NCBI GenBank assembly: GCA_027021705.1
Contig: JALUTT010000156.1
Span: 1-23,791, forward strand
Length of the DNA stretch: 23,791 bases
Origin: Anaerolineae bacterium
GTDB lineage: Bacteria > Chloroflexota > Anaerolineae > S140-20
Reading direction: 5' to 3'
In this document: piece after piece, positions 19,949 to 23,616 of the stretch
Numbering within the stretch: the stretch's first letter is position 1
Layout of the letters: each line of letters opens with the position of its first letter
Notes under the pieces: model-generated
What the model was told of the DNA's origin: nothing
Seen by the model: only the letters and a program-made list of their open reading frames with translations
The model's database searches: none
Position numbers and translations under genes: made by a program

Positions 19949-22900
19949 GTGGACGAGCGTCTTCTGATCCCGACCAAAATTACCATTCCTCATCGGTCGT
20001 CAGAGGTCCTGCGCCGGCAACGGCTGCTCGACTTCATCCACGAACATCTGGACCGCAAACTGATCATCGTCTCGGCCCCGGCCGGCTACGGCAAGACCAC
20101 GCTTCTGGTGGACTTCAGCACCGATACGGAGATCCCGGTCTGCTGGTACACCCTGGACGAGGGCGATCGGGATTTGGGCGTCTTCCTGGCCTATCTCACC
20201 GCCAGCCTGCGTCGGCGGTTCCCCAACTTTGGCCACCAGACCCACCAATTGCTGGAACAGGGGACCATTACACCCCGAAGGGCCGCCGGTGCGGTGGTGG
20301 CGGACATCGTCGAGAGCATCCCCGACTACTTCGCCTGCGTCCTGGATGACTGGCACCTGGTCAACGATAGCCCCGAGATCGTCCAGTTCCTGGACCGGCT
20401 CCTGCACTATCTGCCGGAGCAGGCCCACCTGATCGTGGCCGGGCGGAGCCTACCCCGGGCCTCCCTCATCCGGCTGGCCGCCCGGCGGGAAGTGGCCGGT
20501 CTGGGTCCCAACGACCTGCGCTTCACCGCCGAGGAGGTCCAACACCTCCTGGCCACCTACTACCGGATCCAGGTCTCGCTGGAACAGGCGGCCCAACTGG
20601 CCGAGGAGTCCGAGGGGTGGATCACCGGCATCCTGCTCACCACCCACACGATGTGGCAGGGGCTGCTGGCCAGCCTGCTGCAGGGACGCAGTGCCTCCGT
20701 ACCCCTCTACGAGTACCTGGCCGGCGAGGTCTACGCCCAGCAGTCCCCGGAGATGCGGGACTTTCTCCTCGCCTCGGCAGTGCCCCGCCAGGTCACGGCA
20801 GCCCTCTGCGATCACCTGCGCCAGGCCGGGGACTCCCAGGAGTGGCTGGACCTGGTGGAGGGGCGCAACCTCTTCCTCACCCGCATCGAAGCGGAGGGGG
20901 AAGTCTGGTATCGCTACCACAATCTCTTCCAGTCCTTCCTGCGGAACCGCTTCCAACAGGAGTCACCGACCCGGTTTCGGGAGATGCACCGCCGGGCCGG
21001 GGAGTGGTTTGAGGAGCAGAACCACCCCGAGGAGGCGGTGGAGCACTACCTGGCCGCCACCGCTTACGACGAGGCTATCCGTGTGATCGAGGCCTGTGTG
21101 CAGGACTTTTTCACAGCCGGACGGACGGGTACCATCCTCGCCTGGGCCGAGGCCCTACCCCAGGCGGTGCGGAAGAAGGCCCCGGAGCTCCTGCTCTACC
21201 AGGCCAAAGTGCTGAGCGACCGGGGGCGCGCCGACGAGGCACTGACCGTGTTGGAGAGAGCCGAGATCGCCTTTAAGGCTCGGAACAGCCCCCTGGGCCA
21301 GGCTCGGGTCCTCCTCCAGAGAGGATGGGCTTTGCTGCTTAGAAATCGGTATGGGGAGGCAGTAGAAAGTGGAAAGCAAGCCTACGAGACACTGATCACC
21401 CTAGGTGAGGCGGATACCCCCCTGACCGCCGATGCGCTACGGCTGATCGGCTTTGGCCGGAGTTACCAGGGAGAATTCCAAGAGGGAGAACAGTACCTCA
21501 CCCAGGCGCTGCAGTTGTATGAGCGCATCGGAGAGGCCATCCCCTTCAACCTGGCCCGCGTCCTCCAGGACCTGGCTTACACCCTGCTGCGGCAGGGGCG
21601 GTTGCCGGAGGCGGCCACCTACCAAGAACGGGCCCTGGCCCTCTGGCGGGAGATCGGTAGCCCGGGCCCTCTGGCCTGGAACCTGAACAATACCGGGTAC
21701 AACCGCTACCTGACCGGAGATTACCAGGACGCTCTGGCGCTCTATCAGGAAGCCTTGCCCAGGGCCGAGGAAGCCGAAGATCGCTACATCCAGGTTGTTC
21801 TTCTAGCGGGCATCGGAGACGTCCAGCGGGATACCGGGCAGTTCGATGCGGCCCTGGAAGCCTACCGGCGGGCGGAAGAGATGGCCCGCCAGGGGGGTAA
21901 CGTGGCCCTGATCGCCTACCTCCTCGACGCCCAGGGCCACCTCCACCGCCTGCGGGGAGACCTCAACCAGGCCCAGGTTGCCCTGAGTCAGGCCGAGGCG
22001 CTGGCCAGGGAGCACGGACTCCAGCATCAAGCCCTCCTCTCCGCCGCAGCCCTGGCACTGGTCCGCATCGAAGCAGGGCAGGCCCAGGAGGTCACTCCTC
22101 TGCTCCACGCCCGCGATGCCCTCCAGGAGGCCAACGCCCGTCTGGAATTGGTGCGCGTCCTCTTCTGGCTGGCCCAGGCCGCGTTCCGAAGGGAAGAACG
22201 AACAGTGGCGCGGAGCTCCCTGCAACAGATGCTTCGTCTCAGCCGCGAGGTGGGAGCCGTTCCCTTCTCGCCGGCCGAGGGACGCCACGCCCTCGCCCTG
22301 CTCCGTTGGGCAAAGCGGGAGAAACTGCCGGAGGAAGAAGCCCGCTATCTGGTCACCTGGCTGGAGCGCATCCAGGAGCGGCCATCCCGGGCGGCGGCAC
22401 CGACCTCTGAGAAACGTCCTCGTTTGGAGATCTACGGCTTCGGCCCGGGGCGCGTCCTGCGGGATGGGGAGCTCATCCCCATCGCCGCCTGGGGGGCGGC
22501 CATCGCCCGGGAGCTCTTCTTCTTCATCTTGGACCAGGCTCCCCTTCGCAAAGAACAGATCGGGGTCGTCTTCTGGCCTGGGCTTCCTCCGGGGAGAATG
22601 ACCAGCGCCTTCCACGCCACCAAGTACAAGGCCCGCCGGGCGCTGGGGGTGGAGTTCGTCGTTTATGAGGAGGGGCTCTACCACGTCCATCTGGAGGCCG
22701 ACTGGTGGTACGATGTGGCCGAGTTCGAGCGGCTGGTGCGGACCGCCCGGCGGCTTCCCTTGGAGGATCCCGAGGGCCTCGAAGCCCGCCGTCGGGCCAT
22801 CGCTCTCTACCAGGGCGACTACCTGGAGGACGTCTACGCCGATTGGGCGGCCCAGCGACGCCGGGCGCTGCAGGAGGAGTTCCTGGAGGTGCTGGCCGGG

Positions 22901-23161
22901 CTGGCTCGACATATGCTGGAAGCCCAGGAGCCCGAGGAAGCACTCCGCCTCTACCGACGCGGTCTCCGGATGGATCCTTACCGTGAGGACTTCCACCGAG
23001 GGGTGATGCGTGCCCTCATCGCCCTGGGACGGCGAGCGGAGGCCTTGGCCCACTTTGACGCCCTGACCCGCCAACTGGACCGGGAGCTCCACACCACCCC
23101 TGATCCCGAGACAGTGGCCTTGGGTGAGCGCCTCCGCTCCCATTCCCGCTTACAGCCGTAG
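19949..23161 (+). CDS. MalT-like NTPase-TPR transcriptional regulator with C-terminal wHTH/BTAD domain
   Basis: PTKITIP, Walker A APAGYGKTT, Walker B VLDDWH, DLRFT, EGW and YRYHNLF. Central TPR repeats. C-terminal DVAEFE...LYQGDYLED...W...DPYREDFHRGVM. Confidence 0.92.
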   Translation: MDERLLIPTKITIPHRSSEVLRRQRLLDFIHEHLDRKLIIVSAPAGYGKTTLLVDFSTDTEIPVCWYTLDEGDRDLGVFLAYLTASLRRRFPNFGHQTHQLLEQGTITPRRAAGAVVADIVESIPDYFACVLDDWHLVNDSPEIVQFLDRLLHYLPEQAHLIVAGRSLPRASLIRLAARREVAGLGPNDLRFTAEEVQHLLATYYRIQVSLEQAAQLAEESEGWITGILLTTHTMWQGLLASLLQGRSASVPLYEYLAGEVYAQQSPEMRDFLLASAVPRQVTAALCDHLRQAGDSQEWLDLVEGRNLFLTRIEAEGEVWYRYHNLFQSFLRNRFQQESPTRFREMHRRAGEWFEEQNHPEEAVEHYLAATAYDEAIRVIEACVQDFFTAGRTGTILAWAEALPQAVRKKAPELLLYQAKVLSDRGRADEALTVLERAEIAFKARNSPLGQARVLLQRGWALLLRNRYGEAVESGKQAYETLITLGEADTPLTADALRLIGFGRSYQGEFQEGEQYLTQALQLYERIGEAIPFNLARVLQDLAYTLLRQGRLPEAATYQERALALWREIGSPGPLAWNLNNTGYNRYLTGDYQDALALYQEALPRAEEAEDRYIQVVLLAGIGDVQRDTGQFDAALEAYRRAEEMARQGGNVALIAYLLDAQGHLHRLRGDLNQAQVALSQAEALAREHGLQHQALLSAAALALVRIEAGQAQEVTPLLHARDALQEANARLELVRVLFWLAQAAFRREERTVARSSLQQMLRLSREVGAVPFSPAEGRHALALLRWAKREKLPEEEARYLVTWLERIQERPSRAAAPTSEKRPRLEIYGFGPGRVLRDGELIPIAAWGAAIARELFFFILDQAPLRKEQIGVVFWPGLPPGRMTSAFHATKYKARRALGVEFVVYEEGLYHVHLEADWWYDVAEFERLVRTARRLPLEDPEGLEARRRAIALYQGDYLEDVYADWAAQRRRALQEEFLEVLAGLARHMLEAQEPEEALRLYRRGLRMDPYREDFHRGVMRALIALGRRAEALAHFDALTRQLDRELHTTPDPETVALGERLRSHSRLQP

Positions 23162-23283
23162 GCACTTACTACTCCGACAATTCCCCATGGGTAATCGCCC
23201 AATCACTACCCCCCTGATCTCCTTGGCCTCCATCTCTCTCCACCGTTCTGAGCCGGTTCACGATCCGATGGGGGCATGGTTTC

Positions 23284-23327
23284 GTCACACTTCTGTTACA
23301 CGCACGGTCATAGGTTTCCTTTAATGT
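23284..23327 (+). promoter_or_regulatory. Candidate activator-binding heptamers with a -10-like element
   Basis: GTCACAC (23284), GTTACAC (23295) and weaker GTCATAG (23307), then TAATGT at 23322. Confidence 0.4.
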
Positions 23328-23463
23328 TGAGGACAGTCTGAAGATTGGCTCCTCTCCCGGAGCCAGACTTGGGTACATTTCACTTTGCGGAGGAAGGCGT
23401 AGAAGTCCGCTTTGTGGGTCGAAAGCGGGTTTCTGGCCGGACTTAGCTAGGAGGAGGAAACCT

Positions 23464-23616
23464 ATGTCCGGGAAGATCCGTACCCTCAGCTTCTGGTTTG
23501 TCAGTAACCCCTTGGCGGTCCGCTTCGCCCTGATGAGTGCGAGCGTGGCTCTTGCCTTGGCTACTGGCTTTGTGCTCAACTCACCGCCGGTTGGTGGTGG
23601 AAGCGGCGCTGTGTAG
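23464..23616 (+). CDS. 50-aa putative secreted or membrane-targeted propeptide
   Basis: AGGAGGAGG RBS 6 nt before the ATG. Sequence MSGKIRTLSFWFVSNPLAVRFALMSASVALALATGFVLNSPPVGGGSGAV. Absent from the ORF track, whose shortest entries are 60 aa. Confidence 0.75.
   Translation: MSGKIRTLSFWFVSNPLAVRFALMSASVALALATGFVLNSPPVGGGSGAV

Follow-up and report, generated by a model that had tools for sequence, protein, structure and literature searches.

To our knowledge, peptide signalling through cytoplasmic tetratricopeptide repeat (TPR) receptors is known only from the Bacillota and from their phages and plasmids. Several regulators of the RRNPP type activate their own peptide gene, and the SHP-type pheromones derive from the C-terminus of short, hydrophobic peptides with a final Gly-Gly. 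TPR-like sensors also occur in STAND proteins such as MalT, which is an ATP-dependent switch opened by a ligand. As far as we know, few ligands have been identified for STAND transcription factors that sense through TPRs, and AfsR of Streptomyces is no exception. The afsS gene presumably adjoins afsR, and we take AfsS to be a soluble cytoplasmic protein with internal repeats. Tandemly duplicated propeptides are described for RRNPP systems (PMC11343458). AfsR has the domain order SARP-NOD-TPR, and its activation of afsS depends on two direct repeats of 11 bp, which overlap the −35 region (PMC10936776). Here we analyze a gene pair from an Anaerolineae bacterium of the phylum Chloroflexota (assembly GCA_027021705.1). 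The assignment to this class agrees with an RpoB fragment of the same assembly, which shares 70-75% identity with genomes of Anaerolineales and Anaerolineae. The pair lies near the end of contig JALUTT010000156.1, the whole of which (23,791 bases, 67% G+C) is called the window; loci, genomes and contigs used in the comparison carry L, G, and C numbers. A gene for a large regulator is followed by a gene for a protein of 50 amino acids, and we find that a regulator with a small peptide gene forms a conserved two-gene module in many Anaerolineae.

The regulator gene (19949..23161, plus strand) begins with GTG and encodes a STAND-type protein of 1070 amino acids. Three regions can be distinguished within it: an NTPase domain (NOD; residues 1-395, positions 19949-21133), a TPR sensor (residues 396-810, positions 21134-22378), and a SARP domain, consisting of a winged helix and BTAD (residues 811-1070, positions 22379-23158). 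The MalT model NF003420 aligns over its positions 2-563 with residues 6-568 (E 8e-84), at 282 bits against a curated cut-off of 537. Pfam matches include TPR_12 (E 5e-27), TPR_MalT (E 6e-14) and other TPR models over residues ∼400-770, and BTAD over residues 922-1063 (E 2e-25); positions 13-265 of the AfsR model, its SARP part, align with residues 810-1062 (E 7e-15). Across 14 homologues, residues G46, G48, and K49 of Walker A (GYGKT) and D133 of Walker B (LDD) are invariant, as are W876, F888, and Y911 of the SARP domain. Because of these model matches and the invariant Walker motifs, the regulator is classed as a STAND transcription factor with the domain order NOD-TPR-SARP. It has the NOD with both Walker motifs and the repeat-type sensor behind it that mark STAND/MalT-like proteins, along with the OmpR-type winged helix followed by BTAD that marks SARPs. 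A first-pass annotation of this DNA had described a MalT-like STAND ATPase with a TPR sensor and a BTAD output; the first two elements are borne out, and the output is a complete SARP domain and not BTAD alone.

Of 301 Anaerolineae genomes that were sampled, 117 have a homologue of the regulator at E ≤ 1e-100; the module is patchy in its distribution between families and common inside some of them. The closest relatives of the window's regulator (L017 and L038-L041) are 46-49% identical to it. Searches with this single protein gave one distant match in genome contigs and, in metagenome contigs, the window's own contig together with two distant loci.

The small open reading frame (ORF) begins 302 nt after the stop codon of the regulator, at 23464..23616 on the plus strand, and encodes 50 amino acids (MSGKIRTLSFWFVSNPLAVRFALMSASVALALATGFVLNSPPVGGGSGAV). 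A Shine-Dalgarno sequence (AGGAGGAGG, 23449-23457) ends 6 nt before the ATG at 23464. The layout proposed at the outset, with a gap of about 300 nt and a strong ribosome-binding site between the regulator and a 50-residue ORF, agrees with both coordinates and sequence, and the basic N-terminus, hydrophobic core, and short polar tail ascribed to the product are all present in the translation. Residues 1-20 form a basic N-region with the motif N-P-x-x-V-R, residues 21-35 form a hydrophobic stretch whose last residues are A-T-G, and residues 36-50 form a Gly-rich tail, FVLNSPPVGGGSGAV, that holds a near-invariant proline (P41) and a run of glycines.

This small ORF is a real gene, and the protein that it encodes is under purifying selection. 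A 50-residue relative in a public protein collection is 72% identical to it, with nine changes in the first 20 residues, two in residues 21-35, and one in the last 15, which makes the tail the most constrained part of the peptide. Four positions inside the small ORF (23520, 23523, 23565, and 23568) distinguish the window from a strain represented in two sequencing runs of a separate study, and all four are synonymous changes at third codon positions. The same strain has seven differences in the upstream gap, five of which alter residues of an antisense frame that overlaps the small ORF. Over 26 close pairs of family members, which are not independent of one another, substitutions at codon positions 1, 2, and 3 number 101, 75, and 214. 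Furthermore, the window peptide alone, when searched with phmmer against 14,648 six-frame ORFs, recovers ORFs that follow regulator homologues (L074, E 5.8e-6; L076, 3.4e-4; L081, 6.7e-3). It would be very improbable for the ORF to have arisen by chance in an intergenic region. Such an origin might be suggested by its short length, by the many spurious ORFs that high-GC DNA yields, and by the antisense frame that is open across it; against it stand the homologues, their position, their ribosome sites, the codon-position pattern, and the synonymous strain differences. The antisense ORF itself (23169..23630, 153 amino acids) was considered as a gene and rejected, since five of the seven strain differences outside the small ORF change its residues and its codon-position composition is flat. 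Antisense frames are open in 57 of 78 relatives, which is expected for short high-GC genes and is therefore uninformative.

The small protein matches no family in Pfam or NCBIfam; a match to a structural family such as the pilins, which would have spoken against the original proposal, was thus not seen there. The protein Atlas returned only unnamed clusters, at 0.87, which serves as a lead only. The small ORF had been put forward as unannotated, which is right in that its product has no name; an identical protein has already been recorded from the gene calls of NCBI, JGI/IMG, and ENA. A profile search of a collection of 5.8 billion proteins gathers a family of at least 288 protein clusters at E ≤ 0.001, every one of them unnamed or called 'hypothetical protein' and none with a Pfam domain. 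Family members are 31-59 amino acids long, and nearly every one has an ATG start with a GGAGG-like site before it. An alignment of 24 members shows a shared plan of a methionine and basic residues, the motif N/H-P-x-x-V/L-R, about 16 uncharged residues, small residues, and a near-invariant proline. In a set of 68 distinct members, 67 have an N-region of net positive charge and 59 have small residues ahead of the conserved proline; the median length of the uncharged stretch is 16 residues.

The proline is followed by two to four variable residues, the last of which is often aromatic, and then by the glycine run (P41 and G45 in the window). In the main type of tail this gives ...A-S/G-G-A-P-x-x-W/F/Y-G-G-G. 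The window belongs to a smaller group with L-x-N/S-P-P-x-G-G-G-S, which is common to the genus g17 (L025, L074, L076, L081, and L083) and L020. The closest relatives of the regulator, L017 and L038-L041, are accompanied by tails of the form ...G-M-P-G-G-G-G or a near variant. Other tails contain paired cysteines (L022, L055, L063, L070, L099, L108, and L118), and some extend past the glycine run into an extra hydrophobic end.

The association of the peptide gene with the regulator can be reached from either partner. A similar ORF follows the regulator in 13 of the first 15 homologous loci with downstream DNA. In a larger set, 100 regulator loci were oriented, 93 of them with at least 400 nt of downstream DNA, and were searched with a peptide profile built from the last 40-45 residues and trained on downstream ORFs. 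A profile member ends within 1000 nt downstream on the same strand in 66 of the 93 loci, contrary to the possibility, raised with the original proposal, that no small ORF would be conserved beside homologues. Over the 100 loci the profile matches 79 downstream ORFs on the strand of the regulator, whereas the opposite strand and the regulator genes themselves contain no match; 23 of its members had not been seeds. Because the profile had been trained on downstream ORFs, a family-blind filter was also applied, which asks only for a short ORF with a hydrophobic stretch and with G..P or N/SPP near the end. It passes 60 of 864 ORFs on the same strand and none of 821 on the opposite strand. From the side of the peptide, 19 of 401 genomes spread over the phylum match, and in all nine of the loci that were fetched the SARP domain of a regulator lies directly upstream, one of these (G311) coming from another class. 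The sole locus with a family member upstream of the regulator is L026 (G001:C148), where it is divergently transcribed (1262-1453).

The promoters of the peptide genes carry a further signature. By the published rule for SARP promoters, direct repeats are 11 or 22 bp apart and the 3′ repeat is 8 bp from the −10 element (PMC10936776), a rule that the peptide promoters of the window's relatives match. When the 130 nt before the first peptide gene are examined, 32 of 67 loci have a direct repeat that is perfect (8/8) and has a period of 10-12 nt, compared with 0.2 ± 0.5 in mononucleotide shuffles and with one of 69 pieces of regulator coding sequence of equal length. When 200 nt are considered, 34 loci have perfect repeats (27 with two copies, seven with three), a few of these picks being of low complexity. 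A TANNNT hexamer starts 17-18 nt past the start of the last repeat copy in 18 of these 34 loci, and 16-24 nt past it in 26, an offset that carries no shuffle control. The repeat units are specific to lineages, for example GTGTCATA, CCGTGAGA, TTTTGTAAGCAC, and GTTCAGAGG.

In the window itself, a candidate SARP box on the plus strand consists of three imperfect direct repeats, tcGTCACA (23282-23289), ctGTTACA (23293-23300), and cgGTCATA (23305-23312), with periods of 11 and 12 nt and with the cores GTCACA, GTTACA, and GTCATA starting at 23284, 23295, and 23307. A −10-like hexamer, TAATGT (23322..23327, plus strand), lies 9 nt past the last repeat, its first letter being 17 nt from the first letter of that copy. 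The repeat unit and its register are those of GTGTCATA-N4-GTGTCATA-N9-TATACT in L017, L038, and L039, a comparison that was made post hoc and is weak when taken alone. A repeat finder detected no direct repeat of at least 7 nt in the window's gap, and scans of its intergenic region for a sigma-70 consensus and for terminators returned nothing. In the 5.19-Mb assembly there is a single occurrence of the three-fold motif (at 23284), the pattern having been defined after the site had been seen; a looser two-copy pattern also matches on two other contigs of this genome.

Since SARP-type direct repeats are present in the peptide promoters, the regulator probably drives the peptide gene. In g17 the perfect repeat site is found only at the peptide promoter, once per genome in five of five genomes, with one extra site in G269 that has one mismatch. 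In G012 the box GTGTCATA-GGTT-GTGTCATA recurs twice with a similar leader (L206, G012:C68; L207, G012:C11), before ORFs that by eye are Rhs/YD-repeat-like, and these genes are possibly a further regulon of the regulator. The numbers of sites in g17, in G012, and in the window's genome suggest that the peptide operon is the main, and sometimes the only, recognizable target. The promoter repeats would fit an auto-induction loop and a one-way control of the AfsR-to-afsS kind equally well.

The copy number of the peptide gene and of its tail varies between loci. In L020 (G018:C77; 1069-1326, minus strand), an ORF of 86 amino acids has a signal-like N-terminus followed by three LLANPPVGGGSSAT units, the DNA copies of which have synonymous differences only. 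The regulator of this locus has its best match in the compared set in the regulator of the window (38%), and its tail is the most like that of the window. A second pair in this genome, L062, has a different promoter box and the tail LLADPVSGGSGNG, which is related to that of L020 but distinct from it. In L087 (G116:C2; 3405-4238), five tandem and near-identical genes for proteins of 46-47 amino acids, at a spacing of 174 nt, are followed by a degenerate sixth and then by a gene for a DUF5317 protein. Two tandem peptide genes are present in each of L018, L023, L024, L031, and L090.

In the window's own genome this copy of the peptide gene is the only one found. A population variant is recorded at this place on a minor contig in three public DNA runs from two studies, in which 23603/23609-23642 is replaced by 202-208 other letters. 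Its start falls within the final codons of the small ORF, and the replaced letters extend over the following ∼26 bases. The variant piece (328 letters, depth 11.7) is 168 letters longer than the main piece at the same place (160 letters, depth 59), and it would fit a second gene copy or added tail units. The assembly bubble that it creates is probably the reason that the contig ends at 23791.

Divergence of the peptide was also compared with that of the regulator, by correlating peptide distances with the distances of each regulator domain over 63 loci. For the tail, the correlation (r) is 0.16 with NOD, 0.23 with TPR, and 0.06 with SARP; for the N-region plus helix it is 0.43, 0.56, and 0.24. 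Partial correlations with TPR are 0.19 for the tail and 0.44 for the N-region plus helix, whereas those with NOD and SARP are at most 0.17 and in some cases negative. The co-variation of peptide tails with the TPR region that had been suggested as a check is thus seen, at a level above that with either of the other domains. It lends weak support, because related sequences inflate the figures and because TPR is the most variable domain.

Genes that follow the peptide gene recur in some lineages. In 40 loci it is followed by a gene for a DUF5317 membrane protein, for example at 5147-5737 in L050 (Pfam E 1e-27 to 1e-38 in the five that were tested). In six loci a motif filter finds a receiver-domain gene in this place, including in the closest relatives of the window, and Pfam adds L025 and L031. 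In the genome of the window, at a completeness of 95%, no DUF5317 was found. Seventeen residues of the DUF5317 protein are invariant, among them N-G-G-x-M-P, K135, L-x-D151, and S-x-G-D169, and its structural model is confident (predicted local distance difference test score, pLDDT, 88.7). Foldseek gave no match to this model at E ≤ 0.001 (best 2.5), and the best hit of a wide structural search, at Z 6.0, comprised helical hairpins only. The invariant D151 and S-x-G-D169 had raised the idea of a GxGD-like aspartyl processing peptidase, which was set aside because no fold matched and a search of the window's genome gave no member of the family. A processing peptidase had also been looked for among the genes behind the pair, as the first-pass annotation proposed, and there is none beside it in the window or in G016; modification genes, immunity genes, and a dedicated transporter were likewise not found adjoining the pair in these two.

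Different models can be proposed to explain these observations. The one that we favor, tentatively and with somewhat less than even confidence, is that of a self-induced exported peptide that acts through the regulator. In this model the SARP domain would bind the direct repeats, which replace a −35 element before the small gene, and switch the gene on, as the anatomy of the promoter suggests. From the features of its sequence, the 50-residue precursor would keep its positive N-region in the cytoplasm, insert the hydrophobic stretch of ∼16 residues into the membrane, and expose its C-terminal part outside; if cleavage occurred after A-T-G at residues 33-35, the released part would be approximately FVLNSPPVGGGSGAV. 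The least supported steps come last: the released tail would accumulate with cell density and return to the TPR sensor, directly or through a relay, where it would release the NTPase switch and close a positive loop. The tandem copies, the precursor with three tails, the conserved Pro/Gly-rich tail, and the divergence that tracks TPR would favor such a peptide. The peptide signalling first proposed for this locus is thus supported in part, through the conserved pair, the signal-like peptide, the tandem copies and repeated tails, and the co-variation with TPR; its receptor is not homologous to those of RRNPP systems. It is doubtful, while still a real possibility, that the locus belongs to a new class of auto-induction outside the Bacillota, in which a STAND TPR sensor reads a Pro/Gly-rich peptide from a membrane-inserted precursor of 31-59 amino acids and a SARP domain drives the promoter of that precursor. 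If true, this would be the first peptide signal between cells to be put forward in the filamentous Anaerolineae, and in some genomes paralogous pairs, such as the two of G018, would act as orthogonal channels.

Several observations weigh against a self-induced exported peptide. The tails are short, Gly-rich, and conserved within genera, with no diversification of the kind seen in pherotypes, so that a ligand of this type would carry little information. Every step past transcription (export, cleavage, uptake, and binding) is a proposal, and there is no dedicated peptidase or exporter gene adjoining the pair in the window or in G016. No profile match lies within 1000 nt downstream in 27 of the 93 homologous loci; of these, six have divergent look-alikes by eye (L029, L040, L062, L097, L110, and L111), L080 has two copies 2.3 kb downstream, L026 has its divergent copy, L098 has only a fragment, and 18 show no peptide gene, some of which may be loci of paralogous regulators. 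The repeats of the window are degenerate, with a best 8-mer match of 6/8 that is not significant alone. A pure signal would need further targets, and the repeat-motif search found none in the window's genome; the restriction of the g17 repeat site to the peptide promoter suits a one-way output as well as a loop. Furthermore, the N-region plus helix tracks TPR better than the tail does, which points at least equally to a contact with the cytoplasmic N-terminus, and the correlation with so variable a domain may reflect phylogeny only.

These points lead to other ways of reading the same pair. In a one-way output like that of AfsR and AfsS, the regulator would sense some other input (a metabolite, phosphorylation, or a protein) and switch on the small gene, the product of which would stay in the membrane with a short tail outside and act as an effector, alone or with DUF5317 or the receiver protein, with no feedback. 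We regard this as a strong rival, if a somewhat less probable one than the exported peptide. It draws on the precedent of AfsR, a protein with these three domains that activates the small afsS gene by way of two direct repeats of 11 bp (PMC10936776), and it is consistent with a repeat site confined to the peptide promoter in all five g17 genomes and with a three-fold motif that occurs once in the window's genome. A hydrophobic stretch with a median of 16 residues could be a membrane anchor, the tails are conserved within genera, and a co-oriented gene for the DUF5317 membrane protein lies right behind the small gene in 40 loci. The triple tail units of L020 and the arrays of up to five copies in L087 are easier to explain by a released peptide than by an anchor, however, co-variation of the peptide is with the TPR domain and not with the one that binds DNA, and DUF5317 is missing from what was found in the 95% complete genome of the window. 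The stronger partial correlation of the N-region plus helix with TPR (0.44 vs 0.19 for the tail) would sit well with a membrane tether or co-sensor, in which TPR would bind the cytoplasmic N-terminal 20 residues with their N-P-x-x-V/L-R motif and hold or release the regulator at the membrane, while the outside tail would report the state of the envelope or an external cue. Family members conserve this motif immediately ahead of the helix, and the positive charge of the N-region in 67 of 68 members predicts that this end is cytoplasmic. This arrangement is nevertheless improbable: the N-region is the least conserved part in the comparison with the 72% relative, where nine of its 20 residues are changed, and the repeated tails and tandem copies would be left unexplained.

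Production of a modified or antimicrobial peptide under the control of the regulator (a ribosomally synthesized and post-translationally modified peptide, RiPP, or a bacteriocin) is less probable again. SARP regulators classically control genes of secondary metabolism (PMC10936776), the tails of seven loci have paired cysteines, precursors with multiple cores or copies exist, and the repeat box of G012 also precedes Rhs/YD-like genes. Yet no gene for a modifying enzyme, immunity, or dedicated transport adjoins the pair in the window or in G016, and the tail of the window has no cysteine, Ser/Thr-Cys pattern, or other known core signature. Moreover, the module, although patchy by family, is common within some families and not sporadic.

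The immediate surroundings of the pair could be followed beyond the window. Its final 127 bases are identical to the end of contig C3 of the same assembly, and the junction is spanned by contigs from public runs, so that the downstream genes can be read from C3 (locus L003, minus strand). At 157 nt past the peptide gene, an ORF of 70 amino acids with two hydrophobic stretches begins on the plus strand at 23773..23791 and runs on into L003 15159..15371 (minus strand). It has a GGGGG-rich ribosome site, no Pfam family, and no look-alike among the 100 regulator loci. The genes that follow it on C3 are a convergent TMEM260/PMT_2-like membrane protein, a receiver-domain gene, a PHP-Schlafen protein, and a DUF433/DUF5615 pair. 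The receiver-domain gene, 3.4 kb downstream, was considered as a part of the module. It shares 29% identity with the receiver encoded behind the peptide gene of L017, while other receivers of the window's genome match that of L017 at 40-50%, and for this reason it is not counted. The DUF433/DUF5615 pair (L003 9478-10109), which we take to be a typical toxin-antitoxin arrangement, adjoins a protein of 571 amino acids with PHP and Schlafen AlbA_2 domains (L003 10102-11820; all minus strand). Within the window, two ORFs of 1078 and 680 amino acids (10123-13359 and 13374-15416, minus strand) have hydrophobic N-termini and a strong coding signature. Between the candidate promoter and the small gene, a repeat scan identified two inverted repeats on the plus strand in the presumed 5′ leader (23341-23352/23359-23370 and 23401-23413/23422-23434); Rfam has no family in 23100-23791, this leader included.

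Whichever model applies, the module supplies a candidate ligand and a defined promoter box, and a family of proteins of ∼45 amino acids and its DUF5317 neighbor acquire a regulatory context. If the loop is true, it would provide a first handle on communication between cells in an abundant, filamentous phylum that is hard to grow, and a model for the reading of peptides by STAND sensors. If control is one-way, the logic of AfsR and AfsS, in which a large SARP drives a small adjacent effector gene, would extend far past the actinomycetes. Literature searches, in which supplements were not covered, found nothing on such a module (Anaerolineae or Chloroflexi, with TPR, BTAD, or STAND and a signalling peptide), on DUF5317, or on RRNPP systems in Chloroflexota.

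Among described systems, MalT of Escherichia coli resembles the N-terminal part of the regulator, in that the first 568 residues fit the MalT model and the TPR-like sensor fits TPR_MalT. The score falls below the cut-off for an equivalog, the output is SARP and not a LuxR-type helix-turn-helix (HTH), and the partner is a small peptide gene in place of genes for sugar uptake. The RRNPP systems (Rap-Phr, NprR-NprX, PlcR-PapR, Rgg-SHP, ComR-ComS, and AimR-AimP) share with our pair a cytoplasmic TPR protein and, next to its gene, a small ORF whose product combines a basic N-terminus with a hydrophobic stretch. Their receptors are HTH-TPR or phosphatase-TPR proteins of 250-500 amino acids, unlike the STAND NTPase of 1070 amino acids with SARP output described here, and the present module lies outside the Bacillota. 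In this respect, none of the 13 Pfam or 11 NCBIfam matches is to an RRNPP-specific family, and the Phr N-terminal model TIGR04429 matches only at E 0.079 and 13.5 bits, below its cut-off of 25. With AfsR-AfsS the pair has in common a single regulator that contains SARP, NOD NTPase, and TPR, and a small gene that would be its direct target through repeats one helical turn apart. For this reason the earlier statement that no characterized system has such a layout is only partly right: in AfsR-AfsS the three domains recur, differently ordered, together with a small target gene that is adjacent. The differences are the domain order (NOD-TPR-SARP against SARP-NOD-TPR in AfsR), the phylum (Chloroflexota, compared with Streptomyces), and the small protein, which has a hydrophobic signal-like stretch and a Gly-rich tail. 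The pair resembles RRNPP and AfsR-AfsS at once and is probably a member of neither, since its receptor is not homologous to those of RRNPP systems and its small protein is hydrophobic, unlike the presumably soluble AfsS.

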